A stretch of 64,000 nt of DNA from a virus (lineage: Duplodnaviria > Caudoviricetes): IMG/VR virus record IMGVR_UViG_3300032373_000001. One strand, written 5' to 3'. Of the stretch, positions 31,642-58,580 are shown one piece after another. Below the pieces are notes generated by a model that was not told where the DNA came from, did not search any database, and saw only the letters and a program-made list of their open reading frames with translations. Position numbers and translations under genes: made by a program. The first letter of the stretch is position 1; the number at the start of each line of letters is the position of its first letter.

Positions 31642-32514
31642 TCAGCGGGTGATCGTCAGGCGGGTGAGGCCCTTCGGGTTGTAGGCACCAATACCGAGGT
31701 TCTCGAAGCACGAGAAGCCGATGGTGCGTGCCCTCGGGTCGTCGGCGCTGAGGACAGTCAGCTCGGTGCGGACCGGGATCCGGCCGAACATCTCAGGCTC
31801 GCAGCAGACGTAGACGGTGCCGACCGGAACCAGGCGGCTGACGATGATCTGAGCGCCCCAGAGGGTGCCCATCAGACCAGTCTTCAGCAGGTCGCGCTGG
31901 GACTCGATGTCGAGGATGTCACGGCCGAACTTGCGGAGGTCCGCGTAGTCGCGAGCGTTCATGAACACGCGGGCGACGCGGAGGTCGTGGCGCTCGATGA
32001 GGGCGAAGGCGTCGGCGAGGACAGCACCGCTGATCGGAGCGACGACCGGGATGTCGGGGTTCTCACCACCGGCGATCGAGTCGAAGCCTGAGGTCGCGAT
32101 CGCGTCGAGAACGGCGAACACACGCTCATCCTCAGCAGCCTGGATCTGAGCCTGGGCCAGGTCCTGGGCGCGCTCGATGAGATCGAAACGGCGCTCCTTG
32201 ATCTGGGTCAGGGGGATCTCAGGGTTCGATGCGATCTCGAACAGCGGGAAGATGACACGGCGGGGCTTGGTGATGGCGACGATGTTCTCGCCTTCCTCGC
32301 CGACCACGTAGGCCGTGACATCGGGGTCCTTGTCGTAGATCGGCAGAGCGCCGTCCGGCAGCTGCTCGACCAGGAAGGTCTTGCGGCCGACGGCCATGTA
32401 GTCGCGGCGCAGGCGCAGCGGCTGGGTCATGGAGGCGGCGAGCTTCGCGCGACCGGCTTGGGTGTTGAGGTGCGCCTTGATGAGGCGGGCCTTGACGTCG
32501 TTGGAAACGGGCAT
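31642..32514 (-). CDS. Major capsid protein (HK97 fold)
   Basis: 290 aa, very biased codons, follows protease-scaffold-decoration. IASNPEI ... AQAQIQAAEDERVF ... GTLWGAQIIVS pattern; from memory it resembles the mycobacteriophage Bxz1-type MCP (unverified). Confidence 0.9.
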   Translation of the reverse strand: MPVSNDVKARLIKAHLNTQAGRAKLAASMTQPLRLRRDYMAVGRKTFLVEQLPDGALPIYDKDPDVTAYVVGEEGENIVAITKPRRVIFPLFEIASNPEIPLTQIKERRFDLIERAQDLAQAQIQAAEDERVFAVLDAIATSGFDSIAGGENPDIPVVAPISGAVLADAFALIERHDLRVARVFMNARDYADLRKFGRDILDIESQRDLLKTGLMGTLWGAQIIVSRLVPVGTVYVCCEPEMFGRIPVRTELTVLSADDPRARTIGFSCFENLGIGAYNPKGLTRLTITR

Positions 32515-34592: not shown

Positions 34593-36047
34593 TTAGAGGG
34601 TTTGCGGGTTGTTGTTGCGCTCCCACTTGGAGAGCAAGGAGCCGACCCGGACAACAACCCGGAGTTCGGCAGAGGAAAGCTCCCTCCCCGCCGCGCGCAG
34701 GATGGCGCGCTTGTAGTCTTGCGGGGAAGTGTAGCGAACCGGGGAACCGACCTTCAGCGCCACCCGGTAGGGTGCGGGGTCGGTCGGGATGCCGTAGGCT
34801 TGGTTCAGGGTGGCGACCCCTTCCACCAAAGCCACTTGGGAAGAGGCGGTGCGGGTCAGCAGGTCCATGCTGACATGGTACGCCTTGCGAGCAAGTCGGG
34901 CACCAGCCTCTCGCTGAATCGAATCGTTGGGCTGGAATGTGACCTCCGAGTCTGCCTCGGACGCCTCATCTTCCCTCAAGTCCTCATCGATGCGGTCGTG
35001 GACCTTGTCCTTGACCTTCTCGTAGACCTTCTCGGTGAGGTCTTCGAAAGGCTTCTTCGGCTCTTCGCCCTTCGGCGCATCGCCCCCTTCCTCGTCGTCG
35101 TCCTCGAAGTCGAACGCCTTGCAGAACTTGGGGAGGGTGAGGTTGGCAGCCTTGCTCATGGCGGTGTCGGACCAGCCGGTGGGGGCCTGGGCCAGAACAT
35201 CCCGCAGAGCCTTCTTGACCTGAGCGGGAGGGAGGTCACCTGCATCGATCAGGTTGCGCATGACCGCCCCAGGGAAAGCCGGGACCTTGACCCAGCTGGC
35301 CTCGATGAAGTTCACGCCGCCCGGAGCGTCAGGGTTGTCCTTGTAGTCGATGTGGCCGCAGAGCTCTGCAACGACGCGCTTCTGTTGGCGCTCGTCCAAG
35401 AAGCTATTGAGCTTGCTGATCTTGATGTGGTCGCAGAGGTCCGTCTCATCGACCGCGACATGGCCGCACTGAGAGCAGATGGTGAAGTCTGTGGTACAGC
35501 CCATGCTGAGGGTGCCCATGACCCCAGCCCTGATGTCGCGGACCAGGGTCTCGTGCTTCCGGTCGGTGGCGACCAGAATGTCGATGTAGACCGAATCCCC
35601 GATGTCGCGGGCGACCGCATCCAGGATGCGACCCTTACTCTGGGCCTCGATCTGGACGTGCTCTTGGAAGTTGTGGCCCGCGATGAAGGTGGGGTAGCTC
35701 GCCGTCAGGACCGGACGGCTCCAGCAGTCGCCGTTGTTGTTGACGAACTGAGCCGACTTGTCGGTGATGTAGAAGTCGCCCCAACGACGGTCGATGGTCC
35801 GGGACCCGACCCGGACCCGACCCAGCTTGGCGTTGGGGGCCTGCTCAGTATCCACCGAAGCCACGATGGTGCAGTGAGTGAACAGGTACTTGTCGGGGTC
35901 CAGGCTGCCGCCCAAAATCTCCCTCGCCTGATCTGTCAAGTTGCGGTTGCTCGCACCCGAGGTTGCAGCGGTGCGCGTTCGGCTCCACTGGCGACGACTC
36001 ACGTAGGGGTGAACCACCATGGCATTGGCTTTCTTCGAGTGAGCCAT
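34593..36047 (-). CDS. Prohead maturation protease (herpesvirus/HK97-type serine protease fold) with Zn-ribbon insert
   Basis: NNNGD.W, EH..IE..SKGRILD, LSMGC..DFTICSQC...CDH, FIEASWV..PAFPGA; position upstream of scaffold and MCP. Confidence 0.82.
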   Translation of the reverse strand: MAHSKKANAMVVHPYVSRRQWSRTRTAATSGASNRNLTDQAREILGGSLDPDKYLFTHCTIVASVDTEQAPNAKLGRVRVGSRTIDRRWGDFYITDKSAQFVNNNGDCWSRPVLTASYPTFIAGHNFQEHVQIEAQSKGRILDAVARDIGDSVYIDILVATDRKHETLVRDIRAGVMGTLSMGCTTDFTICSQCGHVAVDETDLCDHIKISKLNSFLDERQQKRVVAELCGHIDYKDNPDAPGGVNFIEASWVKVPAFPGAVMRNLIDAGDLPPAQVKKALRDVLAQAPTGWSDTAMSKAANLTLPKFCKAFDFEDDDEEGGDAPKGEEPKKPFEDLTEKVYEKVKDKVHDRIDEDLREDEASEADSEVTFQPNDSIQREAGARLARKAYHVSMDLLTRTASSQVALVEGVATLNQAYGIPTDPAPYRVALKVGSPVRYTSPQDYKRAILRAAGRELSSAELRVVVRVGSLLSKWERNNNPQTL

Positions 36048-37088: not shown

Positions 37089-40000
37089 TCAATTCCGGTG
37101 CAAATCGGACGCTTGCTTGCCGGTGGCAGTGATGAGGTTCTTCAGGTACTCCTGAACCCAATCGAGGAAGGCACGCTTAGACCGCAACTCTGTCATCTTG
37201 CGTTTAGGGGCAGCTTTGGCCCGCGCTTTCTTGGCAGCCCTCTTGTGGTCAGCGACCACTGCTTCGCGGCCGACCTCTTTGGTCACCGCCGGGTCCAAGA
37301 ACGCGGTCTCAGCCTGCATCAAGTCGATGAGGTGCTGCCGGATCTCATTGCGGTCCTCGTCGCTGAGGTAGCCTGAGCGGTCGGGGTCGGTGAGGAACTG
37401 AACCAGGGAGGCACCCGGATGGTCTTCCGGCAAGAGATCTTCCAAGTCTTGGTCCGTCAGATCCTCGTAGATGCTGCGCATCATGCGCTGGTCTGCCAGA
37501 CCCGAGCCACCGTACATGGAGAGGCCAGCCAACTTGTCCAGGGACCCAGCTTTATCTGCTGCCTGAACCAAGCGTGCCATAGAGCTGGCAACGCCCGTAG
37601 CCTTGTCCCCGTCTTGGATGGCGCTGGCCATCCCGATCCCACGCTGGATCGCCTCAAGGTGGTCCCGTTGGGCACTGTCCTCGGGAAGACCCTCAATCTT
37701 CTCTTCGACCCTTTCCCAGTGTCGCTGACGGGTATCCGCATCCAGCTTCTTGTAGGAAGAGACCGCGCTCAAGGCACGCTCCGCAGCAGCCTTCTTGCTC
37801 TCCTCGGAAGAAGCCTCACCCTTCGGAGGAAGCGGGTCTTCCAAGTCTACTGCGGGGTTGTCCAGCACGTTTTCGTAGTAGGCCATAAGCGCCAGGTTCT
37901 CCGCCAAGGTGGTGGGGTCCTTCACCGAACCTTTCTGGACCTGATCCGTCATATCCTTCAGGGCTTCCAGCAGCCGAGAACTGTCGGGGATGGCCTCTCG
38001 AACCAGCGAGGAGGACGCAGTACTGAACTGCTCCTTGAACTCCTCATACTGATCCGCCCCGAAAGAGTCCAAGACCTCGCGAGTCTTGTCGCGGGAGTCC
38101 TCGGGAACCCCCCTCAGTGCCCTGGTGGTGTACTTCTTCCGCTCCGTAAAATAGCGGTCCAGGGAGACCTCCGAGCTCTCATCCTCTTTCGGCTTGTCCG
38201 CCGAGGGAGCCTCTTTCTCGGGAGCCGCCTCATTCTGCTGGCGGAGCTTCTCTTGCTGAGACTCAGGCAGGGAACCGAACTCGACCTTGTTCCCGGTCTC
38301 TTCGGAGGTGTACTCCTTGCCCTCTGCCCAGTCAGGAACCTTCGCTGCCATACGAGCTACCCTGGCAGCGCTGGGCATGCGAGGGTAGCTTCGATCAAAA
38401 GGGTCGGGGGTCGGGACCCCCGAGGCCCGCTGTTCGCACTGACGCGACCGGATGCGGGTCTCATGTAGACCCGCATCCTTGTAGTTCTGGGAGCGGTCTT
38501 TCTTGTCCTGCTTCTCGTCGGGATCCTGATCTCCGTCGGTGTCGACCTTGCGGTTCCGGAGGTCCATGCGAGGAGGCTTCTTCTTGGGGGACTGCTGTAC
38601 CAGTTTCTCAGCTTCCCGGTCGTCCTTCTCCCCCTCGCTGAGAGTCGACTGCTTGAACCAGACTGCGGAGAGCTGACCCGACAAGGATGCCTTGACCTTC
38701 TTGCCCTTGTTCCGCTTCTCGTTGACCCACCGCCAGAACTGACCGATGGGCATGGTGGAGATCTCACCCTCCTTGAAGTATCCGGGCTTAGAGTACTGGT
38801 TCTTGTAGGCCCCGATGGCCTCCTCGACCGAGTTGAACCCCAGCATCACCTTGTCTTCATCGTACTTCCCGTCCCAAGGGTTGTGCTGATGAACCACGAC
38901 CACCAGAGAGCTGTCGTGGTTATCGCCCACATACACGTCGAGCTTGTCGCCGTCCGTACCCTCGGTGCCCCGGATCTCCCCGTAGTGGCAGATCATCTTG
39001 ACGGACCAGGGCTCCCCGTCAGGGTCCGTGCCGGAGCGGGTGCTGCCCTTCTTGTTCTCCACGTCGATCTTGACGCCCTGGAAGTCGATGAAGCCTTCGA
39101 AAGGATACTCTTTCCGCTTGGCCTTGGGGGGGAGGACCTTGACCGGGTGGAAGTTATGGGGAGACTCGACCAACTTCTGGTTGGTCGAGGCGAACTTCAC
39201 CGTATAGCCAGCAATCTGACGGGTCAGGTCCCCCACGCGATAGCTGAGGAGCTGAGCCTCTTCGTTGTCCCAGAGGTCCCGCACGTCTTCAGCAAGGTCA
39301 TCGATGCGGCGGAACAAGCGGATAAACCCGAGACCCGGCAGGGCGGGTCGCTTGCCGCTGCGGGGCTTGATGTAGCCCTCTACGACCTCCCGGAACTGTC
39401 GGTGGAGGTCGTAGAGCTTCCGGGATGCCCGGTGTGCCCCTTCTACGGCAGCCTCTGCGGCCAGCGCCTTGGTAACCGTGCTCAGATCTTCAACCTGCTG
39501 ATGGAAGGGCGACCGGATCTTGAGCGGGAACACGTCTGCAAGTTTGAGGGTCGCGAACCTCCAAGCACGCGGTCGGGCCGACCCCTTGCGCACGGACTCC
39601 ACGTGACGCATGAACTTCAGAAACTTAAAGCTCAGCGACTGAAGCTCCCAACTCGGCCAAAGCTCCGACGCCTCGTAGAGTGCCTCATCAGCCTCTTTCA
39701 TCTTCCCCAAGAAGTAGTCCCACTTGGGTTCCACGAGCGGGTTCTTGCGGGACTGCTTCATAGAGGGCTCGATGCCATCGATGAACGCGGAAGACATCTT
39801 TGCGTAGGCCCGGCCCAGCAGGGCTTCAGCGGCCTGAGCTCCAGGGTCATCCCTGAACTTGGTGCGCGACCCATGGCTGAATGCAGCGATGCGCGCCATG
39901 AGGTTGTAGGATTCCTTGTAGAGCGGGAAATACCGCCACGCCGGGTCAGCGTATCGGGGGCGCTCCTGGCCCGCATCCATGAGCTGGAGGTTGTCGTAGA

Positions 40001-41507
40001 CCCCCGAAAGCCCGGTCGCCTCCTTGGCGAGGCGGAGTTGGCAGCGGTTGTTCACGTCTACGATACGAGGGTTCTTGAGCTTGGTCGCATCGAACCACGC
40101 GGTGCTCTCGATCATCCAGCCCTCGACGAACGGGGCACCGCGCGCCGTGACGTGAACTCCGTCGTAGAAACCGGCGACCTCCGCCCAGTCGATGCGGATA
40201 TCGGAACCCTCTTCTTCGTAGTCATCCTGCTCAAAGGTCACTGGATCGAGGTAGGCGAACGGGTACACCAGCCCGAAGAGATAGTCCCTCTGAGAGTCGA
40301 TCACCAAGAGGTTCGCTGAAGGGGCCGGGTCCAGCAAGACCGCCTTCTCTCCGACCCACTCCGGCATCTCACCCTTACACCAGTCCAACCACGGAGAGAT
40401 GTTGCCCTTCAAGGTGCTGGTCCAGAACGCCTCGCGGGGCTTGAACCGGGCTACCTTCGGACTGAACATCTTCCGGAGGGTCTGGTACTGAAACTTCTGT
40501 CCGGGGCGGAGCAGGAAGACCTGAGTCCCGAGAGCCTTGGCTTGACGCTCCGAGGCGAACCGCTTCAGGAGCTCCCGGACCACCTGCTGACGGTATGCGG
40601 GCTCGGTGAGACCAGACTCCTTGACCTGCTGAGCCCAGACCCCAGCATCCTGCTCCAGCTTCGCCTGGGCATACTCCGAAAACCTGGCATAGCGCGTAGT
40701 CATAGAGGCTTCCTTGTCGAGCTTGTCCAACACCGTACCGTCCTGAAGGAAGCGGTCTACCATCCCAGGGACCAGGTACTGGCTTTTGAGCGTGCTGGCC
40801 TCATGGCCCACAGCTGCTGCCGCAATCTCCAGGGCATCGGCGAGCTCTTGCTTCAGGATAGGGTCCCGCTCTTTCCGGGGCGTGGGAAGCTCAGGACCAT
40901 CGCTGCGGATCTTCTTCAGGGCTGCACGCACCTCTTCGTTTGCGTGAAGACCCCGGAGGTCCTTGGCGGTGACCCCAAACTCCTTGAGGTAGTCGTTGAC
41001 CTCGGAGGCAGTGATGGAGCAATCCGCACCCTCGCAGAGCACCTTGTCGTCTGAGCCTTTGCCGTCGAGCGCCTTCTTCAGCGCCCCTACCAGGGCACCG
41101 TCTTCGACGGTTTTGTCGTGCTTGACGCCACTCTTCCCCACGTACTTGAAGGTGGCCTTGTTGCCCTCCACCGTGACGTGCTTCTTCAACCAGCCAGTGA
41201 CCCCGAAGTGCCCATCCTTGGCCGACTCCGGATTGCCCACCCTCTCGTAGGTGTTGTCGATGAGGGCCACAGCCAAGGCCGTAAGGCGCTTCTGAGGGTC
41301 AGAAGCGGAGAGGTCCTTCTTGTACTTCGACCGGAGCTTGCCGATGCTCTTGCGGAGCTTTTCGACGCGCTTGGCCTTGGCCTTGTTCCGATTGGACTGC
41401 TGGATGGGGCCGTACTCGTACACGGTCGTCTTCCCCGAGCCGTCTACCTTGTCGACCTCTTTCTTGTTCTTGTACTTGGCCAGGACCCGGCTCGGATCAA
41501 GTTTCAC
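37089..41507 (-). CDS. Polyvalent protein: topoisomerase IB + unknown (ART-like?) domain + inorganic pyrophosphatase-like domain + acidic helical region
   Basis: Topo IB pentad (ERVGN, GKSG, KDLR, GH-x8-Y); FQGVKIDVENKKGS.RSG.D..G...YGEI.GT.G.DGDKLDVYVG...DEDKVMLGF. GTG start at 41507 overlaps the upstream TGA, with GGAG RBS. Confidence 0.8.
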   Translation of the reverse strand: MKLDPSRVLAKYKNKKEVDKVDGSGKTTVYEYGPIQQSNRNKAKAKRVEKLRKSIGKLRSKYKKDLSASDPQKRLTALAVALIDNTYERVGNPESAKDGHFGVTGWLKKHVTVEGNKATFKYVGKSGVKHDKTVEDGALVGALKKALDGKGSDDKVLCEGADCSITASEVNDYLKEFGVTAKDLRGLHANEEVRAALKKIRSDGPELPTPRKERDPILKQELADALEIAAAAVGHEASTLKSQYLVPGMVDRFLQDGTVLDKLDKEASMTTRYARFSEYAQAKLEQDAGVWAQQVKESGLTEPAYRQQVVRELLKRFASERQAKALGTQVFLLRPGQKFQYQTLRKMFSPKVARFKPREAFWTSTLKGNISPWLDWCKGEMPEWVGEKAVLLDPAPSANLLVIDSQRDYLFGLVYPFAYLDPVTFEQDDYEEEGSDIRIDWAEVAGFYDGVHVTARGAPFVEGWMIESTAWFDATKLKNPRIVDVNNRCQLRLAKEATGLSGVYDNLQLMDAGQERPRYADPAWRYFPLYKESYNLMARIAAFSHGSRTKFRDDPGAQAAEALLGRAYAKMSSAFIDGIEPSMKQSRKNPLVEPKWDYFLGKMKEADEALYEASELWPSWELQSLSFKFLKFMRHVESVRKGSARPRAWRFATLKLADVFPLKIRSPFHQQVEDLSTVTKALAAEAAVEGAHRASRKLYDLHRQFREVVEGYIKPRSGKRPALPGLGFIRLFRRIDDLAEDVRDLWDNEEAQLLSYRVGDLTRQIAGYTVKFASTNQKLVESPHNFHPVKVLPPKAKRKEYPFEGFIDFQGVKIDVENKKGSTRSGTDPDGEPWSVKMICHYGEIRGTEGTDGDKLDVYVGDNHDSSLVVVVHQHNPWDGKYDEDKVMLGFNSVEEAIGAYKNQYSKPGYFKEGEISTMPIGQFWRWVNEKRNKGKKVKASLSGQLSAVWFKQSTLSEGEKDDREAEKLVQQSPKKKPPRMDLRNRKVDTDGDQDPDEKQDKKDRSQNYKDAGLHETRIRSRQCEQRASGVPTPDPFDRSYPRMPSAARVARMAAKVPDWAEGKEYTSEETGNKVEFGSLPESQQEKLRQQNEAAPEKEAPSADKPKEDESSEVSLDRYFTERKKYTTRALRGVPEDSRDKTREVLDSFGADQYEEFKEQFSTASSSLVREAIPDSSRLLEALKDMTDQVQKGSVKDPTTLAENLALMAYYENVLDNPAVDLEDPLPPKGEASSEESKKAAAERALSAVSSYKKLDADTRQRHWERVEEKIEGLPEDSAQRDHLEAIQRGIGMASAIQDGDKATGVASSMARLVQAADKAGSLDKLAGLSMYGGSGLADQRMMRSIYEDLTDQDLEDLLPEDHPGASLVQFLTDPDRSGYLSDEDRNEIRQHLIDLMQAETAFLDPAVTKEVGREAVVADHKRAAKKARAKAAPKRKMTELRSKRAFLDWVQEYLKNLITATGKQASDLHRN

Positions 41508-44500
41508 AGCTGACTCCAACGGAGGGACAACTCTCGCATTGCCTGAATGCTGGCGAGACGCCCGGCATCTTGAAGGGGGGTATTCGGGGGCAAGTACCCA
41601 GGACTCGAACCGAGCGGGATGTTCTCTGGGGCACCCATGCCCCAGATCTGGACGCTGTTGAAGTCCCAGGAGCCCCGGGGAGCCTCCAACCTCACTTCCT
41701 CACCTACAGGCACGTAGGCGATCGTGACGTGGGGATTCCAGCGGGGGAACGAATCCTTGACCTCGAACCCCGCCTCTTCGAGCCGTGCGCGGAGCCCATC
41801 TCTGGCCCGATTGAGGTCGCGACTGAACCGGACCCTGCTGAAGATGACCTTTTGCTCAGGGCTCAAGAAGCGGTCCAGCCCTCTCAGGGCAGCCCGGACC
41901 GGGCCGCGGACCTCACTGAACGCCTGGGTGCAGACAACCTTGAAATCTTCCTCTCGCCCCTCGGGGACCTGACCCACGTACAGGAGGGTGATGTGGGCCG
42001 GGGATGGGTCCTCACTCTTGGTCGGGTACTGAGCCGCCAACCCCTCCGGGAGGGGAATGAACAGGCCCACAGAAGTGCCCGTGGGAGGGACCACCGCAGC
42101 AGCCTGGGCGGAAGCCGTTCGGCTCTGAGGGGCGGAGGCTCGCCGGGACATAAAAGTGTGACCCCTTTCCCGGCCCGTCTCGACGAACCCGCGACGCTTC
42201 AGCATGCGAATCGCGTGAGGGTTGACTGCATCCAGGCAGAAATCCAAATCCTCGAAGGCTTCAGAGATTGCATCGTACTCGTCGATGGCATAGTCCATGA
42301 GCTTGGCCCCGAGGCCCTGCTTTTGCCTGTCGGGGCGGACTGCGATGTCGAAGGAGTAGCAGTCGTTGCTAACCTCGTCGAACAGTACCGCGACCAGCTC
42401 CCCGCCGACCATGAGCCCTGCCTTGAAGTCCTTGCCGCTGAAGATGTTGATGCCCGCTTGCTTGGCGATCTCCCAAGGGTCCGGGCCATCCCACGGAACC
42501 TCGAAGACCCACTCGACCCGATTGCTGAGCTTCAGGGCCTTTTCCTCGCCGCCTGCTGCCAAGATAAGGACACCGTCCTCTTCTTTGAGCACATCACCCT
42601 CGAACCGGGCTCCCTGAGCCGTGGTCCAAGCGACCTTGGTCTGCTGGGTCCACTTCTCCCCATCGGTATCTCGTCCAGCCTCCAGCGCGCCGAGATAGAA
42701 CCAGTGCTCTTCGATGCTGGCACGATCTGCGCCGCGAGGCAGGGCAGCCGTAGACGCCCCGTAGTCGGGTTCGGTGACCAGCTCCCAGGTGTTGGAGTAG
42801 AGGACCGGGACGCCCGCAGCGTCTTCTTTCGACTGGCCGATCGTCGGGTGGATGCTCGCAGTACGACTCATGCCCGCCCCCTTGGGCTGAGGAGAACCAT
42901 TCGCATACAACCGGGAACCCCGAACATAGCGCACCAGGTCCTGTTCTCCCAGCTGATAGGGGGTGTTGCTCAAGAGACTCATGGCCTGGGCCTTGGTCAT
43001 CAGCTTCGGACCCTTCAGGACGACGTCCTGATTCCAGGTGACCTCTTCCGAATAGGAGGGCTTGGGCATGGTGTCGGTCCGGAACCGGATTGCAACGACC
43101 GGACCCTCATCCTTGTCGATGTGGGTAGTCTGGGTCCCCGGGACGTAGTCTCCCCACACCAACGAGATGGCATACACGGCATAGCCGCCGAACTTCTTGA
43201 TTCCGGGCGGGTCAAGCAAGAGCTTCTTGGAGCGGAGAATAGAGGCAGCACGCTTGGCGGTGGTGAAGTGGACGAACTCATCCGACGCCAAGTTCATCTC
43301 ATAGACGCGGCCTTCCATGAAGGTGGTCTCGCTCGTGGGCGTCGGACCCGCAGAGCCCACCTTAACCTTCATGGTATCTCCAGTCCACTCCCCACCCTTT
43401 TCCTTGTACCACTTGGCAGCCCACCCTTGATGGAATCGGACAGGCATCTTGGGGTGCTTATCTTGGGCCGACCTCAGCGCCTCGGCCCAGAGGGCTGCAT
43501 TCTCGGGCTTGCCGAAGTCCCCCTCAAAGAACTCCCTTGAACCCTTGAACCAAGCCGCCCGAAGCTGGCGAGACGCAGCGCTGGAGAACAGGCCCGCCAC
43601 AGCCTTGTAGGCTTCCCCGATCGCCTTCCTGTACTTGCCCTGAGCAGAGGCTCCGGCCCGCTTCAGGTCATAGAAGAACGCAAGCGGATAGGTCCGGGTG
43701 TCGTGCCGGCGCTGGCCCACCATGATGCGGAAAGCTGCTGCCCGTTCCTCTATCGGGAGGGCTTCCAACCCCTCCCGCATACGCTCAATAGCGTCCGGCA
43801 ACTTGGTGTAGAACTCCCGGTCGTCCAGCGAATGCTGCGATCGGTTTTGGCCCTGCTGGCGGATGTCCGGGGTGCGGATCTTCTTGCCGGGGAGGCCCGC
43901 CTGGATCTTGTCGGAGGCGAATCCCGCCAGAGTGCTCAGGAGGTTCTGGGCATAGTGGCGCATCTCGTGCTGAAGGGCCTGCTGGATCCACTTGGCGTTG
44001 ACCTTCGGGCTAACCTCGACCTCTATGACGGCGGTGCGCGGGTCGAACTCGGCCGAGCGACGACCTCTGGTGTCGCTGAGTATCAGATTCACCCCAGGCT
44101 TCTTGGCACTCCGAAGGATGTCACGCTTCATATTCTCGATGTAGGCGAGCATGTAGTCCGGGATCGGACCTTCCGGGGGCTGGAGCTTCTTCAGGAGGTC
44201 AGCGTTTTCCTTCTCGATCAGCTCCTCAAGGCGGTCCCCGTACTTCCAACCCTTGAGGTCTGCTTCGAACCTCTTCTGAACCGGCCCGCTCAACACCACG
44301 GCTTCTGGGTGGAGCTTGCTGAGCCGTTCCCACTCCTCCCATGCAGAGTTGTCGGAGCCCATGCCTTGGGCCACGCCCTTGTCCATACGGGTTTTAGCCC
44401 AAGAAGCGACGGCCCAGCGATACATCTCGTCCAACATCGCCGGAGGAGCTTCGAGCAGACCTGCCTGCTTCGATGCAACGAAACGGTCAGGGATACCCAC

Positions 44501-46897
44501 GGGCCGGGTAGCAGCGGCGCACTTTTCAGAAGAGATCCTGACCGTCGGGAGAACCTGCCGCAACATCCCCAGGATCATATCCGGAACAGCCTTGGGGCCG
44601 AAGGCAACAAGTTTCCCCAACGCTTCACAGAAGGACTCCTCGGGGTTCTTGTTGGCGTACCCGCTGATAGGTAGCCCCGGAACGCGGACCACGGGGGGCC
44701 CGCCCCCTTCCAGATAGTCCCGGATGTCCTCTGCTGAGTCGAGGCCCTGACTCGACGCGGGGCCGTACTCCAAGGCAGAGAGTTGGAGGTGTAGGATAGG
44801 GTCCGCCTTCTTCAAGGCACTATCGATGACCCAAGAGGCACCCACAGATTCCATCTTCCGAAGAGCCCGGCGGAGGTCCAAGTCCTTGGAGGTCCCCCGA
44901 ATGAGTCCCCCCCAAGTCTTCCGGGCATCTCCGGAGAGCACCGTCTGGTAAAGGTGATGGCCCATCTCATGGGCCATCACCCAGACAAACCTGCGGATGT
45001 CCGAGCCGAGCTCCCAAGGGGTGACGTGGATCATCCCCCTCTCATAGTAGGCCCCTGCGCTGCTGGGGACCCCCGCCTCAAAATTCCACTGAATGTGGAC
45101 CGGGACCATACGTTGGAGAATGATGGGGGCGGTTTGTTGGGAACGCTCCCGAAAGAGGGCCAAGCCCTGCCGAACGATCGGGAGTTTGTCTTGGTACGGG
45201 GAGTCTTCGAAGCCTCGGAACACCACGCGGAACCCCGAGAGGCTCACGACCTCTTCCTCCGGGACCAGAAAGGGGATCGGCTCCTGACCGCCGCGCAGAC
45301 TCGCAGACCACTCTGCCAAATCCCCAAGCACCGACCACGACTTGCGCGCCTTTGCCCGGATGCGGTTGGCCCACTTTCGGGCTTCGTCTTTCCACTTGCC
45401 CAGAGCTTCCACTTCGGCTTCCTGCCGGGACCAGAGCGGACGGCGCGTCAAGTAGGACCGAGTCTGAGCCTCTGCGTCCTCTCGAGAGGACGCATATCCC
45501 CGGTCCAAGTAGAACCGGACGAGCTCTTCAAACAGTTCCTCTGGGGGTCGCCAAGGGTTCCCCGAGGAATCCTTCACCGGAATTTGAGAAGAGGGGACCC
45601 TGCCCACCTCATAGGCGAACTCCCACATCGGCTTGAGTGCTCGATCCAAGAAGGCGCGGGCATCTTGAACATTCGCAGGGGAAGTCCTCCCAGGATACTG
45701 GGAGGAGCGGATGCGGCCTTCCAAGTCCTGGCGGACAGTAGCCGTGAAGGAATCGAAGTGCTCCCGCCAACGGTTGACGGCAGCAGATACCTCCTGGGCC
45801 TGAGAGATGCTTTGAACGCGGTCAGCGGCCTTGGCCAGGGCCAAGATGTCTTTCCGAAACCTCTGGATAAGGTTCTCGTCCAGCACTTCCTTGCGGGCAG
45901 TCTTCCCCGGCCCCTTCTTGTCAGCGGCTTCCATCTGCTGGAGGATCTTCTTGACCCAAGCGAGCCCAGGGTCACCGCCCCACAGGAGCCAAGAGACGTA
46001 CCCCTTGTCGTTCCAGGGCTCGCCCTTGTGCTCTTCGGAAATGCCCTTGTTCTTCTGGTGCCGACTGAAGAAGCCGTGCATCTGCTTGATGGTGTCGGGG
46101 GCGATGTTGTCGCGGTTCTTCAGGTTGACAGCGCGCTGAACGCCGGACCCGATGCCCTCTTTGCCAGCTTCCTCGGAAGTCAGACCGCCCTTGTTCGAAG
46201 GGGACGCCTTCTGACGATACTCCAAACCCTTCTCCGCAGCTTTCGCGACCGACTCCGGAGGCTGGAAGTTGATGCCCTTGTATTTCTCCGGCACAGCCGA
46301 CCGAAAGCTAAGGGCCTGCTTGAACCTGCGTGGACTCAAAAGGGAGGCTGCGCGGGGGAAAGCAAACCGCACCGGATCCTGACTGACTCGAACAGGGAGG
46401 TCAAGACCAACATCCCTCAAGAGGGTGGAGGCCCTCGAGACCCCGCCAGCCGAAGGGACCAGGAGCCCCATCATTGCCCCGCTAACCTTGACCGGGGCAT
46501 ATTCCCGCTTGGAGACCCACTCCCCCTCATCCTTTTTCCAGAGGAAGGAGTCGAGCATCGCCTGCCCCTGAGCCTCCTCGACGCACTCTTCATCCTCCTC
46601 GCCCCACTCCTCGTCGTAGCAGCCATCAGGGATTTGGAACTGCTCATACCAACCCTCCCCCGCGATGTAGTCTGCGTGAACGGGGTGCTCCTCGGCCCAA
46701 CGCTCTGTGTATTCCACGGGAATTAGCTGGCTCCGGAGCTTAGAGGCATCCAGCACCAAGCACACATCCCGATGACTGATGTCACCGCTGAACAGAGGCT
46801 TCACCGAGAAGCTCAAGAAGGGTGCGGGACTCTTCATGACCCCCGAACGAAGAATCTTGAGCGCGTTGGACCAAGAAGTGGTGTGGTAGAGATTCAA
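41504..46897 (-). CDS. Polyvalent protein: two ART-like domains, two zincins, GNAT, 2H phosphoesterase and several small conserved phage domains
   Basis: LYHTT..LSFS..EGE; WLLWGGDPG..W; HEMGH; HEMRH; GWAAKWYK.KGG.W; VHFTT; AVRPDRQKQGLGAKL; HITL...PHVTI. TTG start. Confidence 0.78.
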   Translation of the reverse strand: MNLYHTTSWSNALKILRSGVMKSPAPFLSFSVKPLFSGDISHRDVCLVLDASKLRSQLIPVEYTERWAEEHPVHADYIAGEGWYEQFQIPDGCYDEEWGEEDEECVEEAQGQAMLDSFLWKKDEGEWVSKREYAPVKVSGAMMGLLVPSAGGVSRASTLLRDVGLDLPVRVSQDPVRFAFPRAASLLSPRRFKQALSFRSAVPEKYKGINFQPPESVAKAAEKGLEYRQKASPSNKGGLTSEEAGKEGIGSGVQRAVNLKNRDNIAPDTIKQMHGFFSRHQKNKGISEEHKGEPWNDKGYVSWLLWGGDPGLAWVKKILQQMEAADKKGPGKTARKEVLDENLIQRFRKDILALAKAADRVQSISQAQEVSAAVNRWREHFDSFTATVRQDLEGRIRSSQYPGRTSPANVQDARAFLDRALKPMWEFAYEVGRVPSSQIPVKDSSGNPWRPPEELFEELVRFYLDRGYASSREDAEAQTRSYLTRRPLWSRQEAEVEALGKWKDEARKWANRIRAKARKSWSVLGDLAEWSASLRGGQEPIPFLVPEEEVVSLSGFRVVFRGFEDSPYQDKLPIVRQGLALFRERSQQTAPIILQRMVPVHIQWNFEAGVPSSAGAYYERGMIHVTPWELGSDIRRFVWVMAHEMGHHLYQTVLSGDARKTWGGLIRGTSKDLDLRRALRKMESVGASWVIDSALKKADPILHLQLSALEYGPASSQGLDSAEDIRDYLEGGGPPVVRVPGLPISGYANKNPEESFCEALGKLVAFGPKAVPDMILGMLRQVLPTVRISSEKCAAATRPVGIPDRFVASKQAGLLEAPPAMLDEMYRWAVASWAKTRMDKGVAQGMGSDNSAWEEWERLSKLHPEAVVLSGPVQKRFEADLKGWKYGDRLEELIEKENADLLKKLQPPEGPIPDYMLAYIENMKRDILRSAKKPGVNLILSDTRGRRSAEFDPRTAVIEVEVSPKVNAKWIQQALQHEMRHYAQNLLSTLAGFASDKIQAGLPGKKIRTPDIRQQGQNRSQHSLDDREFYTKLPDAIERMREGLEALPIEERAAAFRIMVGQRRHDTRTYPLAFFYDLKRAGASAQGKYRKAIGEAYKAVAGLFSSAASRQLRAAWFKGSREFFEGDFGKPENAALWAEALRSAQDKHPKMPVRFHQGWAAKWYKEKGGEWTGDTMKVKVGSAGPTPTSETTFMEGRVYEMNLASDEFVHFTTAKRAASILRSKKLLLDPPGIKKFGGYAVYAISLVWGDYVPGTQTTHIDKDEGPVVAIRFRTDTMPKPSYSEEVTWNQDVVLKGPKLMTKAQAMSLLSNTPYQLGEQDLVRYVRGSRLYANGSPQPKGAGMSRTASIHPTIGQSKEDAAGVPVLYSNTWELVTEPDYGASTAALPRGADRASIEEHWFYLGALEAGRDTDGEKWTQQTKVAWTTAQGARFEGDVLKEEDGVLILAAGGEEKALKLSNRVEWVFEVPWDGPDPWEIAKQAGINIFSGKDFKAGLMVGGELVAVLFDEVSNDCYSFDIAVRPDRQKQGLGAKLMDYAIDEYDAISEAFEDLDFCLDAVNPHAIRMLKRRGFVETGRERGHTFMSRRASAPQSRTASAQAAAVVPPTGTSVGLFIPLPEGLAAQYPTKSEDPSPAHITLLYVGQVPEGREEDFKVVCTQAFSEVRGPVRAALRGLDRFLSPEQKVIFSRVRFSRDLNRARDGLRARLEEAGFEVKDSFPRWNPHVTIAYVPVGEEVRLEAPRGSWDFNSVQIWGMGAPENIPLGSSPGYLPPNTPLQDAGRLASIQAMRELSLRWSQL

Positions 46898-54151: not shown

Positions 54152-54490
54152 TCAGCCCTTCCCGTGCTCGTCCGAGGCCCCACGGACCGGCCACCGACCG
54201 CTTGCGCGGGACTCCGTCTCAGCGCTGAGGATCTTGTCCTCATTGATCTCCTCCAGAGCCTCCAGCTCCTCGACGAACCCCTTGATCAGGGACTGAGCTT
54301 CGGGGCTCGCGGGGTCCGTGTGGGGGAAGGCACCTTCGAGGGACTTGGTCACTGCCCGAACGACCCCGCGAGAGTAGAGCGCGACCTTGTCCAAGCTGGT
54401 CAGGATCGCCCTGCGGGTCTCGTCACCCTTCGGGAGAGAGCGAGCCAGCCGCACCAGAGCCTGTCGCTCCTGCTTCGAAATCCTTTTCAT
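54152..54490 (-). CDS. Hypothetical protein with leader family 2 (candidate head cargo)
   Basis: Starts MKRISKQERQALVRLARSLPKGDETRRAILTSLDKVA; AGGAGG RBS. Confidence 0.75.
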   Translation of the reverse strand: MKRISKQERQALVRLARSLPKGDETRRAILTSLDKVALYSRGVVRAVTKSLEGAFPHTDPASPEAQSLIKGFVEELEALEEINEDKILSAETESRASGRWPVRGASDEHGKG

Positions 54491-56333
54491 CGGAGGTCCT
54501 CCTATCCAGAGTTGCCGATAAGGAAAGGATTGCTCTGGCGAGGGCCTCTATCGAGACAGTGTCGCCCGAAGCGGTCTTGAGGCTGGCGAAACGCCCTTGG
54601 CTCTCCTTGGGTTTGGCGTAGGTCAACCCCAAACCCTTCGCGAGCTGGGACACGACGTCGGAGTTCTCGACCAGCTGCCGTCCCGTGTCGCTATAGATGC
54701 CTCGCATCATCTCGTTGTATGTCGGATCGTTGACGGTCAGCCGGTCCCGCTCGACCTTCTCCCGCACAGCCACCGGATCGAGGTTCAGGAGCTCCAGGAT
54801 GGTGTCGATGTCCAGCGAGCCCTTCTGGTACAGGTTGTAGAGCGCGTCGAAGGTGTCCCGGTTGTCCCGCAGGGCAAGGCGGGTGAAGCTCAGGGAGGGG
54901 ACCAAGACAATCTTATCCCCGTCCTCGTCTTCCTCCACAAAGCCCATACGAGCACACATAGGACGCAAGAGGATTTCTTCCACCAGTTTCTGGAGCTGCT
55001 CTCGCAAGAGCATGTAGCGGGTGTTGATGGCCTCCAGGTTCACCCGGTCCCCGGAATAAGAGCCCTCTCCTGTCAGGAGGCTCTCCGTGATGCCCAGGCC
55101 CGCATACAACTGACGGTTGGTCAGCTCATACTCGCCGTCCAGGTTCAAGAGGCGCTGGTCTGCCCCCATTTCTTCCCAGCGGACCTCGAAGTTGGAGACG
55201 ATGGAATAATCCGGGTCCATCAGGGCCATATCGACCTGCTCCCGGAGGTCCTCCACGTCACCCAGGCTAAGATCTTCCCCGTACACAATGCGGATAGGGG
55301 TCATGTGCCGCGAGGCGATGGAGGTCTGAGCCTGACGGAGCTTGTCCCGATAGACCAGGGCTCGCATGCAGCACTGGAGGATCGAAGTCCCACGGGCCTC
55401 GTAGTCCGACTTCTTGTTGTAGAGGCAGTACACGAAGCTGCCAGCATACGGGTCCGTACCCAAGACCACGTTCCCACCCTTCCGGACCGCGTCGATCAGG
55501 TGGGGAGGCATGTCATCCACGACCTCCTTTGCCACCGGGTCTCCCGCTGCCGCCTGCTCGATGACCTTCTTGGTCTCGGAGTCCGGGAGCATCTCCACGA
55601 TCTTCTTGTCGGTGAAGTTAAACGTGCGGACCCTAATGTTCTCGGGGGGGAGGCAGACCAACTTGGTCCAGCCCTTGTAGTTCTTCTTCAGCCACTTGGC
55701 AGCGCGCTTGTCGGCGTCCTCGTACTTGATCCTCTTCTCTACAGCCTCACCATCTTCCGTCAAAACCCGCTGCGTGTAGTGAGTGATATCTTCCGGCATC
55801 TCCGGGTTCTTGTCCTCGCACCAGAGATACACCTCGCCGATGAGGTTGCGCTCACGGGTGATCGCCAAGAGCCGGTCCGTCAGGTCGATGCGCCGGACCC
55901 ATTTCTCACAGAAGCGCATCGCCGCCTCCGCCATCTTCCGATTCTTGGCGCGAGGGATTGCCAACCGTACCTTGCTGATCGGCAGGATGGAATGTAGGGA
56001 AATCGCCTGGCTGACGTAGGGTTCGTTCTTATCGAAGAAGCGGTAGTAGGCCCACTGCTCATGGAGGCTCTGGGGCAGCTCCAAGAAGTCCGTGGAGAGC
56101 TCCGGGGAGTAGAAGTTGCCTCCGGCTCCCATCACCGACCCGCCGTTGCCGAAGCCGCCTCCACCGTAGGATGCGGTCCGAGACTTCATCTGGCTGGAAA
56201 CCACCCGCCGAGGCGGGCCAGCCTTGGCCTTCTTCTTGCCGTCTCCGTTGGAGACCTTGTTGACCACCTGAGCATCATCTTCTTGCTGCTTGCCCAGCCG
56301 CTGGCCGAACCCCTTACGACGACCCATCTGCAA
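54423..56333 (-). CDS. Portal protein
   Basis: 636 aa two genes downstream of terL; FYSPE...YYRFFD..EPYV.QAI.LH, RGTSIL, helical C-terminal half. Confidence 0.8.
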   Translation of the reverse strand: MQMGRRKGFGQRLGKQQEDDAQVVNKVSNGDGKKKAKAGPPRRVVSSQMKSRTASYGGGGFGNGGSVMGAGGNFYSPELSTDFLELPQSLHEQWAYYRFFDKNEPYVSQAISLHSILPISKVRLAIPRAKNRKMAEAAMRFCEKWVRRIDLTDRLLAITRERNLIGEVYLWCEDKNPEMPEDITHYTQRVLTEDGEAVEKRIKYEDADKRAAKWLKKNYKGWTKLVCLPPENIRVRTFNFTDKKIVEMLPDSETKKVIEQAAAGDPVAKEVVDDMPPHLIDAVRKGGNVVLGTDPYAGSFVYCLYNKKSDYEARGTSILQCCMRALVYRDKLRQAQTSIASRHMTPIRIVYGEDLSLGDVEDLREQVDMALMDPDYSIVSNFEVRWEEMGADQRLLNLDGEYELTNRQLYAGLGITESLLTGEGSYSGDRVNLEAINTRYMLLREQLQKLVEEILLRPMCARMGFVEEDEDGDKIVLVPSLSFTRLALRDNRDTFDALYNLYQKGSLDIDTILELLNLDPVAVREKVERDRLTVNDPTYNEMMRGIYSDTGRQLVENSDVVSQLAKGLGLTYAKPKESQGRFASLKTASGDTVSIEALARAILSLSATLDRRTSDEKDFEAGATGSGAAGSLSPEG

Positions 56334-56667
56334 TCTCCTCCGCCGCCTGCTGCTCAGCCGCCCTCAAGAGGGCTTCTTCTCGCTCCTGTCGGACCCGTTC
56401 TCGGAGCTGTTGCGCCAGCTCATCCTCGGTCATCTCGTCGGTTTCTCGAGGGCCATTGCTGTAGGGGCTCACCATGCTGGGAACGTCCTGGATCATCTCC
56501 AGGAGCCCCCGGAGGTGCCGCAGGGTCCTTCGCTTCCGCTGAGGAGGTACGCCTACGGCTTCTGAGGCAGAGCGGAGTGCAGCACGGACCTCGGACTCCG
56601 CTCGACGAAGGCGGATCAGGACCTCACGGTCTTCCGCGCTACTCTGGCGGATCCGGAAACGAGTCAT
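56314..56667 (-). CDS. Hypothetical protein between terL and portal
   Basis: 117 aa, ATGA overlap with terL stop. Confidence 0.7.
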   Translation of the reverse strand: MTRFRIRQSSAEDREVLIRLRRAESEVRAALRSASEAVGVPPQRKRRTLRHLRGLLEMIQDVPSMVSPYSNGPRETDEMTEDELAQQLRERVRQEREEALLRAAEQQAAEEIADGSS

Positions 56668-58580
56668 CGACGGCGGCCTCGGGGAATGGTGCGACTACTG
56701 TGGGACCCTACCCCAGTGCGGCGCGCGGACCTTCGGGAATTCCCGAAGGGGGTCTTGCCTGCTGAAGGCAGGCCCCGGCGACCGGACGCCCCCAGCGTTG
56801 CATGCTGGTAGGTCTTGTTCTGGGTAGCGCAGAACACCATGCGAACCAAAGCGTCACTGTAGTCGTCGTGTTTCCCTTCCATCTGGGGGGCCTCGACGTT
56901 GACGATGTACTTGGACTTGTACTCCGCCTGAAGCTCCAACAGCTCTTGGATGTAGTCACACCACTCCTCGTCGTCCGCCAACGGCCAGTTGTAGAGCCGC
57001 ATCTTATGGTCCATCATGAGGTGCATGAAATTGGTGTAGACCTGGGAGTTGAAGCTGGGGTTGAACAGCTTCGACTTGATGTTCTTCAGGCCACGGCGGT
57101 TCAGCGCCTGCTCGAAAGGGATGCCAGCCCACTGGTCGAACATCCCCTCCACGATGTAGAAGCGCTTGCTCAGGTCGTAGACCCAGTCCGCGACGTGATC
57201 GAACTCCAACCGCTCGTAGTCTGCGTAGTCGCCCTCGCCAGCGCGGATGCGCTCGATGTAGTCCAAGACTACGTTGCCATCCGGGTCGTTGTGGCCAACG
57301 GCGACTGCAGAATAGTCGCCGACGAGGGCGATGTCGACGCCCATGAAGTGGGGGGCGCGAGGCTGTGCCCGGAGCTTGGGGCGCATGTCGGGGACCACGC
57401 AATCGTGCAGGTCCTTGGGGGTCTGGATCCAGCCACGAGTCTGATCGCTGAAGATCGCACCGAACTCAGTGTCGAAGACGTTGGGGTCCTTTAGGTAAGA
57501 ACCGACGAACGTCTCAGCAGGAACTGTGGGGTTGACCTCCCACGTAGGGGCCTGGATGCAGAGGAGGTTGTCTGCGGCTGCGTTGTCGCCAAAACCCAAC
57601 CGGAACTGCTTATAGAAAAGGCCCTGCTTGCCCAGCGGCGAGGAGATCATGATGATCCGACCCTCGTTCTCTCCGACAGGCTTGGTCTTGTCGTTGGGGT
57701 CCTTCTTGCTGAAGGTACGGGTAGAAGGCTCGACCGCCTGATAGACCTCGTCGGCCGACGCCTGCCCCTTGTCTCCGAAGTGAGCGACCTCATCCAGGGC
57801 AACCAGCAGGTTGGCTCCACCACGAAGGCCCTTAGCCACACAAGACCGGAAGGTCACGTTGATGCTGAACCGGGCCTTGGGGTTGTCCGCGTAGGACCCG
57901 TACTGCTCGATGTCATAGGGGGTCTGGAAGGTGGCATAGCTCTGCGTGGCGTTCGCAGCATAGGGTCGGAAGAAGTCACACTTGGTGAAGTGCCCCGAGG
58001 CCTCCCTGTAGAGCAAGGACGCCTGGTCCTTGTCGGTAGCGACCGAGATCAGCTGGATGACGTTCGATTGAGAAGAGCCGTAGTATGCCTGGGGGTTGCC
58101 CTTCAGGAGGAGCTTGTACGCCTCATAGGCGACGATGCAAGACGTGATCAGCGTCTTCCCAGAACGGCGACCAACACTGAGTACCATCTCGCGGCGCTGC
58201 CTGCCAGGGACGACCGCATCGATGTTGCAGCGGCCCTCACTGTGGAGGTACTTGATGTAGCTGGCCTCGGTGTGGTACTGAGGGTTCTGCCGCCGGAAGT
58301 CTGTGATGACCACCCGATAGACGTAGAAACCATCCGTGTCAACGAGGTCTTCGTCGTAGGCTGGGTGGTTAGTCGGGATCGGCACATCCAGCGGGAACCC
58401 GAGGGGGTTGTCGTCCAGCCCCATACCATAGTGGGCCTTGAGGATGATACGCTGAACCGGGAACAGCTTGAGGCCCAGCCCCCACTCACTCTCCACGAAC
58501 GTAATGATGTCAACCGCCGCATCGTCCGTAGAGTTAGACGAGCGGCGACCGACGCCAGCTACCAGGTTCCCCAGGCTCAT
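56664..58580 (-). CDS. terL: Terminase large subunit
   Basis: Walker A GRRSGKT, Walker B LVALDEVAH, coupling motif ISSP, nuclease FMGVDIA and HDDYSDA. Confidence 0.93.
   Translation of the reverse strand: MSLGNLVAGVGRRSSNSTDDAAVDIITFVESEWGLGLKLFPVQRIILKAHYGMGLDDNPLGFPLDVPIPTNHPAYDEDLVDTDGFYVYRVVITDFRRQNPQYHTEASYIKYLHSEGRCNIDAVVPGRQRREMVLSVGRRSGKTLITSCIVAYEAYKLLLKGNPQAYYGSSQSNVIQLISVATDKDQASLLYREASGHFTKCDFFRPYAANATQSYATFQTPYDIEQYGSYADNPKARFSINVTFRSCVAKGLRGGANLLVALDEVAHFGDKGQASADEVYQAVEPSTRTFSKKDPNDKTKPVGENEGRIIMISSPLGKQGLFYKQFRLGFGDNAAADNLLCIQAPTWEVNPTVPAETFVGSYLKDPNVFDTEFGAIFSDQTRGWIQTPKDLHDCVVPDMRPKLRAQPRAPHFMGVDIALVGDYSAVAVGHNDPDGNVVLDYIERIRAGEGDYADYERLEFDHVADWVYDLSKRFYIVEGMFDQWAGIPFEQALNRRGLKNIKSKLFNPSFNSQVYTNFMHLMMDHKMRLYNWPLADDEEWCDYIQELLELQAEYKSKYIVNVEAPQMEGKHDDYSDALVRMVFCATQNKTYQHATLGASGRRGLPSAGKTPFGNSRRSARRTGVGSHSSRTIPRGRRR

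Follow-up and report, generated by a model that had tools for sequence, protein, structure and literature searches.

The DNA considered here, referred to as the window, is a stretch of 64,000 nt from an uncultured tailed phage of about 411 kb (IMG/VR record IMGVR_UViG_3300032373_000001). One of its head-block genes encodes a multi-domain protein of 1472 amino acids (aa), and the first module of this protein is, judged by family and fold, an intact and true type IB topoisomerase (TopIB). Phage polyvalent proteins and the TopIB of jumbo phages were already known; a TopIB inside such a protein is apparently new. The favoured reading is that the enzyme is packaged and delivered: it would be built into the prohead, perhaps processed, and leave the particle with the DNA. 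A probability of about one in two is attached to this reading, whose basis is the position of the gene, the company of polyvalent-type domains and the logic of late expression. The stretch is contained in three DNA runs, all of them microbial-mat metagenomes from 2019, and no RNA runs containing it are listed.

The topoisomerase module

The gene, the module and its catalytic residues are located as follows, with residues numbered on the 1472-aa protein (P0003). The five catalytic residues were assigned by alignment, and each codon was checked.

37089..41507, minus strand: gene of the 1472-aa multi-domain protein, with a GTG start; P0003 corresponds to residues 5-1476 of P0001
40704..41489, minus strand: type IB topoisomerase module of 262 aa, from RVLAKY to LDKEAS, identified by Pfam and an AlphaFold2 (AF2) model, with edges taken from conservation in 120 relatives
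41241..41243, minus strand: catalytic Arg R89, equivalent to vaccinia R130
41133..41135, minus strand: catalytic Lys K125, equivalent to vaccinia K167
40953..40955, minus strand: catalytic Arg R185, equivalent to vaccinia R223
40803..40805, minus strand: catalytic His H235, equivalent to vaccinia H265
40776..40778, minus strand: active-site Tyr Y244, equivalent to vaccinia Y274, the predicted nucleophile forming the 3'-phosphotyrosyl link

Pfam Topoisom_I (PF01028) is the sole Pfam match of the module and covers residues 42-246 of P0001 (E 1.6e-24; 87 bits against a cut-off of 23.7). When solved structures were searched by sequence, the best match was the TopIB of Deinococcus radiodurans (2f4q, E 1.8e-14), and the variola topoisomerase was also found (2h7f, E 1.6e-8). 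The five catalytic positions align as R in ERVGN, K in YVGKSG, R in KDLRG, H in VGHEAS and Y in KSQYL. This R-K-R-H-Y pentad is invariant in 120 of 120 long relatives and in all 46 rows of alignment A1, at an overall identity of about 60%. The observation is therefore real and not a product of chance, and an invariant pentad at such identity suggests that catalysis has been kept by selection. No second copy of the module is present within the 64-kb window, in which the poxvirus target CCCTT is no commoner than expected (163 observed, about 184 expected).

The edges of the module are conserved as well. It starts with R-V-A-A-K-Y (here RVLAKY, residues 7-12) and ends with L-D-K-K-A-[ST] (here LDKEAS, with KEAS at residues 265-268). 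Among the 120 relatives, [KR]-x-A-[SAG] is found at the N edge in 101, and the C edge has K in 99, then any residue, then A, G, S or T in 115. A looser R-V-A-A-[KR]-[YFW]-like pattern occurs 229 times in 205 proteins, as against 11.8 +/- 3.4 in shuffled sequences (about 19-fold), and roughly half of the R-V-A-A-K-Y-like matches lie away from the topoisomerase. The RVLAKY and KEAS tags of the original prediction are thus present at conserved edges, but RVLAKY is not specific to junctions: R-V-A-A-K-Y also starts free-standing versions of 260-400 aa and is therefore not simply a cleavage tag. The R-V-A-A-[KR]-[YFW]-like hexapeptide was seen at module edges and also in the leaders and tails of free-standing topoisomerases, the copy of the window being at 41472-41489 on the minus strand. 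The x-x-A↓S sites of herpesvirus assemblin resemble these junctions, which serves as a lead only. As to the extent of the module, the proposed end at 40720 falls about 5 residues short of the conserved edge at 40704.

Predicted structure

An AF2 model of the module was built on 46 relatives (pLDDT 87.3, pTM 0.80), and the top 22 Foldseek matches obtained with it are all TopIB. VIA-align gave Z 23.3 for the variola topoisomerase (2h7f; root-mean-square deviation 4.1, 251 residues aligned), Z 23.2 for human Topo I and Z 22.5 for the D. radiodurans enzyme; the best tyrosine recombinase was XerH, with Z 14.0. The PF01028 match, the aligned pentad and the Z of 23.3 with variola bear out the prediction of a type IB topoisomerase, and the codon positions of H235 and Y244 confirm that their spacing is 9 residues, as for H265 and Y274 of vaccinia. 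A site-specific tyrosine recombinase or a telomere resolvase would use common catalytic chemistry on a distantly related fold, and XerH, Cre and lambda integrase do reach Z 10-14. By contrast, TopIB structures give Z 20-23 over the whole module as against at most 14, Pfam returns Topoisom_I only, and the module has the TopIB-type Lys in a beta-hairpin together with the His-x8-Tyr spacing. This alternative is scarcely credible and was rejected on the fold scores.

Residues 5-272 of the model superpose on variola residues 47-314. Because the alignment begins at variola residue 47, most of the poxvirus N-terminal domain must be absent from the module. The complete N-terminal beta-sheet domain of about 80 aa, which is the second jaw of the DNA clamp in poxvirus and bacterial TopIB, is not present, and all that stands before the catalytic domain is a single hairpin (strands 14-19 and 26-31). 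This retained hairpin carries two invariant tyrosines, Y30 and Y32, aligned with Y70 and Y72 of vaccinia. Since only one hairpin of the N-domain remains, the model places the module outside the two-domain small TopIB subgroup of poxviruses and bacteria, probably as a separate and pared-down TopIB clade. With 314 aa, the poxvirus enzyme usually counts as the smallest topoisomerase, and activity is retained by its isolated catalytic domain.

Position among the head genes

The following features of the window define the setting of the gene and the element on which the census of related loci was based.

56664..58580, minus strand: large terminase (TerL), phrog_2, E 3.3e-23
54423..56333, minus strand: portal, phrog_16240, E 3.1e-24
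34593..36047, minus strand: prohead maturation protease, phrog_18299, E 2.8e-8
31642..32514, minus strand: major capsid protein (MCP), phrog_2522, E 8.6e-51
38457..38666, minus strand: KPPR element of the 1472-aa protein, charged, about 70 aa, residues 948-1017 (..TLSEGE..EAEKLV..SPKKKPPR.DLR..DPD..; core E-x-L-V...P...K-P-P-R)

On the minus strand the order is TerL, portal, several unknown open reading frames (ORFs), an 805-aa ORF, a 1797-aa protein and the 1472-aa protein, followed by two small ORFs, the prohead protease, a putative scaffold (named by its position, with no family match), a 223-aa ORF and the MCP. The same placement is found in six relatives (L001, L004, L006, L012, L013 and L014), so that, with the window, all 7 long forms examined have it; as a site, the gene after the portal is used by 7/7 long forms as against 0/3 short free forms.

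A census that does not start from the topoisomerase gives the same picture. IMG/VR was scanned with patterns of the KPPR element, and the topoisomerase and the head genes were then sought in each of 44 non-redundant loci. The protease gene lies downstream in 42 of them. The loci fall into four classes:

25 loci: topoisomerase in the same ORF
4 loci: topoisomerase in a separate ORF of the same head block
12 loci: no topoisomerase in the locus
3 loci: ORF cut by the contig end

Where at least 300 residues precede the KPPR element, the topoisomerase is always present (25/25 ORFs), and in the 12 ORFs that lack it this stretch does not exceed 227 residues; the enzyme is therefore a constant and not an occasional payload in this clade. 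The enzyme does form the opening module of a giant multi-domain protein, here encoded in the head block; this much of the original prediction holds, and the arrangement recurs in both samples (7/7 and 42/44).

Across 35 IMG/VR contigs (L015-L074) the MCP, of 290 aa, is 72-91% identical (median 86.6%), and the median identities on the same contigs are 44% for the terminase, 59% for the portal and 49% for the protease. The capsid protein is unusually frozen in the clade. Inteins (LAGLIDADG or Hint) interrupt the terminase and likely protease or head genes in L013 (1-3615 and 14545-17244) and L004 (20155-23088).

Copy number and switching between fused and free forms

Copies were counted in 8 related large IMG/VR records of 297-619 kb, two of which are complete with terminal repeats. 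Each of the 8 holds exactly one member of the clade: in 5 it is fused in the head-module protein, which is hypervariable and follows the portal gene, in 1 it is a small ORF between terminase and portal, and in 2 it is free and far from the head genes. In L054 (4113-4889) and L059 (4137-4907) the sole TopIB is a small separate gene between terminase and portal, and one of these genomes is complete, with 447,761 bp. The record of L068 (G003, complete, 435,804 bp) has a second, distant TopIB of 32% identity at 82660-83424, in a 1008-aa open frame. On a tree of 335 modules, 9 changes between free and fused were counted as against about 43 with shuffled labels, a descriptive comparison given that sampling is biased and kin share labels. 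The state is therefore fairly stable, yet it has been switched repeatedly.

These counts bear on the idea that the enzyme acts as a late packaging swivel, tethered to prohead or portal, which would remove the twist of packaging a concatemer of more than 400 kb, and maybe that of ejection, and would have no early role in the next cell. In favour are the place of the gene in the block for packaging and head, the complete relative of 447,761 bp with its sole copy between terminase and portal, the single copy seen in each record for fused and free forms alike, and the fact that a TopIB, being independent of cofactors, could be active within a capsid. Against this stand the free copies of three relatives, far from packaging genes and near genes for a sigma factor, RNase HII or methylases, as well as the GNAT, 2H, ART and InPase partners, which resemble effectors aimed at the host. 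We know of no precedent for a topoisomerase as packaging swivel, and this explanation seems rather unlikely.

Relatives of the module

Searched exhaustively and without a profile, 1.84 billion representative proteins yielded 3233 clusters at E ≤0.001 and 542 at ≤1e-30. The best 150 clusters, the window's own protein apart, are 46-70% identical and come from proteins of 354-3381 aa. The module thus defines a large clade, confined to phages and comprising more than 150 clusters at 50% identity, that appears to be hitherto undescribed. In the curated phage collection, distant matches at 28-32% identity are found in PaBG and in Xanthomonas and Erwinia phages.

The original prediction had suggested a search for Topo IB-headed polyproteins in related phages. 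A place at the head of the protein is not the rule there: of 120 long relatives, 30 have the module at the N-terminus and 90 have it internally. Short proteins (149-475 aa) are about as frequent as long ones (452 vs 462 matches), and free forms as short as 260 aa occur. Within a set of short forms (P0226-P0233, P0235-P0253), those of about 390 aa have an extra C-terminal domain of about 110 aa (..GDCYEAAGKF..LVHGEVAGQG..) after the K-K-A junction, and those of about 351 aa an extra domain of about 84 aa (..PPLLFANRIIRQLVDHM..) at the same place. Many 'free' topoisomerases are thus two-module mini-fusions. On the whole the original interpretation is upheld in part. Fused forms recur, but free copies occur in non-structural regions and stand-alone TopIB was already known in jumbo phages (PaBG).

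Three of the free-standing forms (L009, L010 and L011) have small unknown genes as neighbours, along with a sigma factor, RNase HII or methylases. From such copies in non-structural regions it follows that the basic job of the enzyme need not involve the virion. The protein might then be no virion component at all, being instead a late cytoplasmic multi-enzyme, or one processed to free enzymes, that serves replication, transcription or recombination of the huge genome, which is presumably also the job of the free-standing versions. Free-standing orthologues being as common as fused ones (452 short, 462 long), their non-structural locations, a single-copy pattern that implies one shared job, and the reading of the jumbo-phage TopIB (PaBG) as an enzyme of DNA metabolism are all in line with this. 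It is nevertheless hard to explain, without a tie to the head, why fusion is found only at the gene after the portal (7/7 long forms; 25/25 payload-bearing ORFs), and the InPase present is of the type linked to virion proteins. This account is judged unlikely.

Among the relatives, the Pfam partner domains of the module include PAP2, PolyA_pol, ChaC, tRNA-ligase CPD, HAD_SAK_1, GGACT/AIG2, Fe/Mn superoxide dismutase, GNAT, 2H and InPase; ART-PolyVal is seen in relatives only, just below its cut-off. The company of enzymes of the host-takeover type (GNAT, 2H, ART-PolyVal), and the ability of TopIB to relax negative supercoils without cofactors, would suit an injected weapon that relaxes the host nucleoid, opposes gyrase and stops host transcription and replication. 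The strict single copy and the free non-structural copies, however, point to housekeeping on phage DNA, and there is no sign of target discrimination, so that the phage genome would be equally hit. Such a weapon is improbable.

The rest of the carrier protein

Besides the topoisomerase and the KPPR element, the 1472-aa protein contains the following parts.

39120..40694, minus strand: payload of about 525 aa without assigned family (P0001 residues 276-800), with no Pfam match and one PHROG match at E 0.0028
38724..39098, minus strand: InPase domain (inorganic pyrophosphatase type of phage polyvalent proteins), Pfam PF18823, E 2.4e-40
37110..38177, minus strand: all-alpha C-terminal region of about 356 aa, AF2 pLDDT above 90 over most of it, the candidate head-anchoring part

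The protein combines two unrelated effector domains, Topoisom_I and InPase, in one polypeptide, and thereby has the at least two that mark polyvalent proteins. Among the PHROG families matched by the InPase domain are some that carry the names minor head protein and virion structural protein. The payload gave an Atlas feature score of 0.81, and a cluster of the AcrIF11 ADP-ribosyltransferase stands at rank 66 with 0.76; both values are below threshold, so that an ART-like identity of its first half is a weak lead. By BLAST, this first half is found in 5 other topoisomerase-bearing proteins. No MPTase profile match was obtained in the 1472-aa protein, HExxH motifs being found only in the neighbouring 1797-aa protein.

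In relatives the KPPR element has the consensus ..ATKSxxE.EDEEAERLV.PSPKKKPPR.DLRR..DPD..QD.KDRS. With a hidden Markov model built here, exactly one copy was found in 181 of 205 long topoisomerase-bearing proteins, as against 6 of 120 short ones, and one in the window; a median of 546 residues follow it. In payload-less versions (among L015-L074) the element stands at the extreme N-terminus, and the gene directly follows that of the portal. The element has the appearance of being the original beginning of an older head protein to which payloads were later joined.

For the C-terminal region, Foldseek gave a best E of 0.24 against the PDB and of 0.023 (TM 0.11) against BFVD, a wide VIA search returned helical hairpins only (Z ≤7.1), and TM in the ESM Atlas did not exceed 0.25. 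Nothing was found in PHROGs, nor by tblastn against the phage collection. Its last 226 aa match 65 relatives by BLAST, and a word-indexed search with the region recovered 7 proteins only, each containing PF01028, a number insufficient for a census.

The upstream gene and the start of the reading frame

41504..46897, minus strand: upstream 1797-aa multi-enzyme protein, with GNAT, 2H phosphoesterase and two HExxH motifs
41504..41507, minus strand: GTGA overlap, in which the GTG start (41507-41505) of the 1472-aa gene overlaps the TGA stop of the upstream ORF, read directly from the sequence

In the ORF list the frame of the 1472-aa protein runs from 37089 to 41519 on the minus strand, with the topoisomerase at its start. 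An independent gene call on the 410,989-bp ENA contig gave the identical GTG start and 1472 aa. The GTGA overlap suggests that the 1797-aa and 1472-aa genes are translationally coupled. The 1797-aa protein matches GNAT (E 1.2e-6) and 2H (E 2.6e-10) in Pfam. Its translation contains HEMGH and HEMRH, neither with a Pfam match, and two alike H-x-T-T..ILRS segments near residues 5 and 1180; it is without a KPPR element.

The 1472-aa frame stays open for about 65 codons 5' of its start, over the end of the 1797-aa gene (41504-41699, minus strand). A programmed frameshift joining the two proteins was considered and rejected, there being nothing in its favour except this open-frame overlap (stop-to-stop frame 37092-41699). 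In the relative L004, payload and KPPR element likewise belong to two distinct proteins, whose ORFs overlap by 4 nt, and the point at which payload and anchor are fused or split seems to recur.

Comparison with known systems

The poxvirus TopIB (vaccinia and variola, 314 aa) shares with the module the fold, the R-K-R-H-Y pentad with His-x8-Tyr and the two tyrosines of the N-domain hairpin. The module differs by an identity of only about 20%, by the lack of a counterpart to the first 46 or so residues of the N-domain, by its length of about 262 aa, and by being fused in a 1472-aa multi-enzyme protein of a tailed bacterial phage. Bacterial TopIB (D. radiodurans, 2f4q and 3m4a; Pseudomonas aeruginosa) have the same catalytic-domain architecture, with 24-28% identity to the D. 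radiodurans enzyme. They are stand-alone cellular proteins with a full N-terminal domain, and D. radiodurans has Asn in place of the catalytic His.

T4 has the gene order 20, 67, 68, 21, 22, 23, in which the genes from portal to protease make prohead-core proteins, several of them cut by the protease and injected. The T4 prohead-core and internal proteins (gp67, gp68, IPI-III and Alt) thus offer a likeness in gene order to the window. No kinship of sequence or fold to them was found, the T4 internal proteins have a short N-terminal capsid-targeting peptide, and none of them is a topoisomerase.

Stand-alone TopIB are encoded by cultured jumbo phages (PaBG gp84, Lu11, phiRSL1 and the Xanthomonas PhiXhv phages), as noted by Iyer et al. 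(2021). In contrast to the module, these are single proteins of 562-668 aa, with 28-32% identity over 60% of the module, and belong to a different clade. Their genes were seen a few kb from capsid or connector genes in PaBG (L002, 5086-6774) and PhiXhv-15 (L003, 5116-7122), and that of PaBG lies downstream of an SprT-like protease gene.

Phage polyvalent proteins (Iyer et al. 2017) likewise combine many unrelated enzyme domains and are encoded with virion genes. They share InPase, 2H, GNAT and, by matches just below its cut-off, ART-PolyVal with the clade, and the same logic has been proposed for them, namely the delivery of ready enzymes with the DNA; those bearing InPase were argued to be packaged and injected (Iyer et al. 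2017, PMC5512222). The carrier protein differs from them in that no MuF-type domain was found in it, in its KPPR element and helical C-terminal region, and in the constancy of the topoisomerase. The main text of that paper has no TopIB, and 'topoisomerase' appears in it only in one reference title (PMC5512222). No TopIB within phage polyvalent or virion proteins was found in the literature, the coverage of which was incomplete, so that absence is not proven.

The proposed role

Loading into the prohead is the most likely fate of the protein because its gene stands among prohead-core genes, because InPase is in the same polypeptide and because the gene is coupled to that of the GNAT/2H protein. 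Moreover, if the fused enzyme is expressed with the late head genes, it could act early only when carried in the particle. By analogy with other TopIBs, Tyr244 would nick one strand, the duplex would swivel and be resealed, and both signs of supercoil would be relaxed with neither ATP nor Mg. The protein would be loaded into the prohead, perhaps by way of the KPPR element and the helical C-terminal region, and could be cut at junctions of the K-x-A-[ST] type. Expelled with the DNA, the topoisomerase, together with the pyrophosphatase, would provide a ready swivel for the 411-kb genome on its arrival, ahead of all phage gene expression, and its role would be that of a phage counterpart of the topoisomerase in poxvirus cores. 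The vaccinia TopIB is carried in the particle (Shaffer and Traktman 1987, cited in PMC12188299) and acts mainly in early transcription (Da Fonseca and Moss 2003, cited in PMC12188299), so that the original prediction had drawn the parallel correctly on both encapsidation and early transcription.

Several observations weigh against packaging and delivery. The same enzyme is encoded free among non-structural genes of related phages, and, as each genome has a single copy, late action inside the cell may simply be what the fused form does. The topoisomerase of PaBG, although encoded 4 kb from the capsid gene, is not named among the 14 virion proteins identified by mass spectrometry. The module is carried by no cultured phage, and in the curated phage collection there is a single close match, the uncultured 485-kb LR745208.1 (52.7% identity). 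No known head-targeting domain (MuF, portal-binding) was found by Pfam or PHROGs, and the C-terminal region that would serve as anchor has no significant fold match. Finally, loss of most of the N-terminal clamp domain might weaken DNA binding.

Implications

If the topoisomerase is packaged, control of DNA topology joins the functions that particles carry ready-made, and a direct parallel would exist between huge phages and poxviruses. A bolder version is doubtful: that this clade of huge phages, with MCPs 72-91% identical, keeps a pared-down TopIB of about 260 aa inside the particle, held near the portal by an anchor protein dedicated to it, as a swivel for packing and expelling 300-600 kb and then for first transcription. 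If true, virus assembly and entry would involve a topoisomerase in a mechanical role of a new kind, convergent with the enzyme carried in poxvirus cores.

The poxvirus enzyme exceeds the module in length by about 50 residues, and the module has hundreds of natural variants; it could thus serve as a minimal system for studying how TopIB clamps and recognizes DNA, and its variants may hold new cleavage specificities for cloning enzymes. A single copy that is either free or fused is a natural experiment on why a phage would cease to make an enzyme after entry and deliver it at entry instead. An undescribed family is marked by the KPPR element together with the helical C-terminal region: a family of head-module proteins that accepts very varied enzyme payloads.

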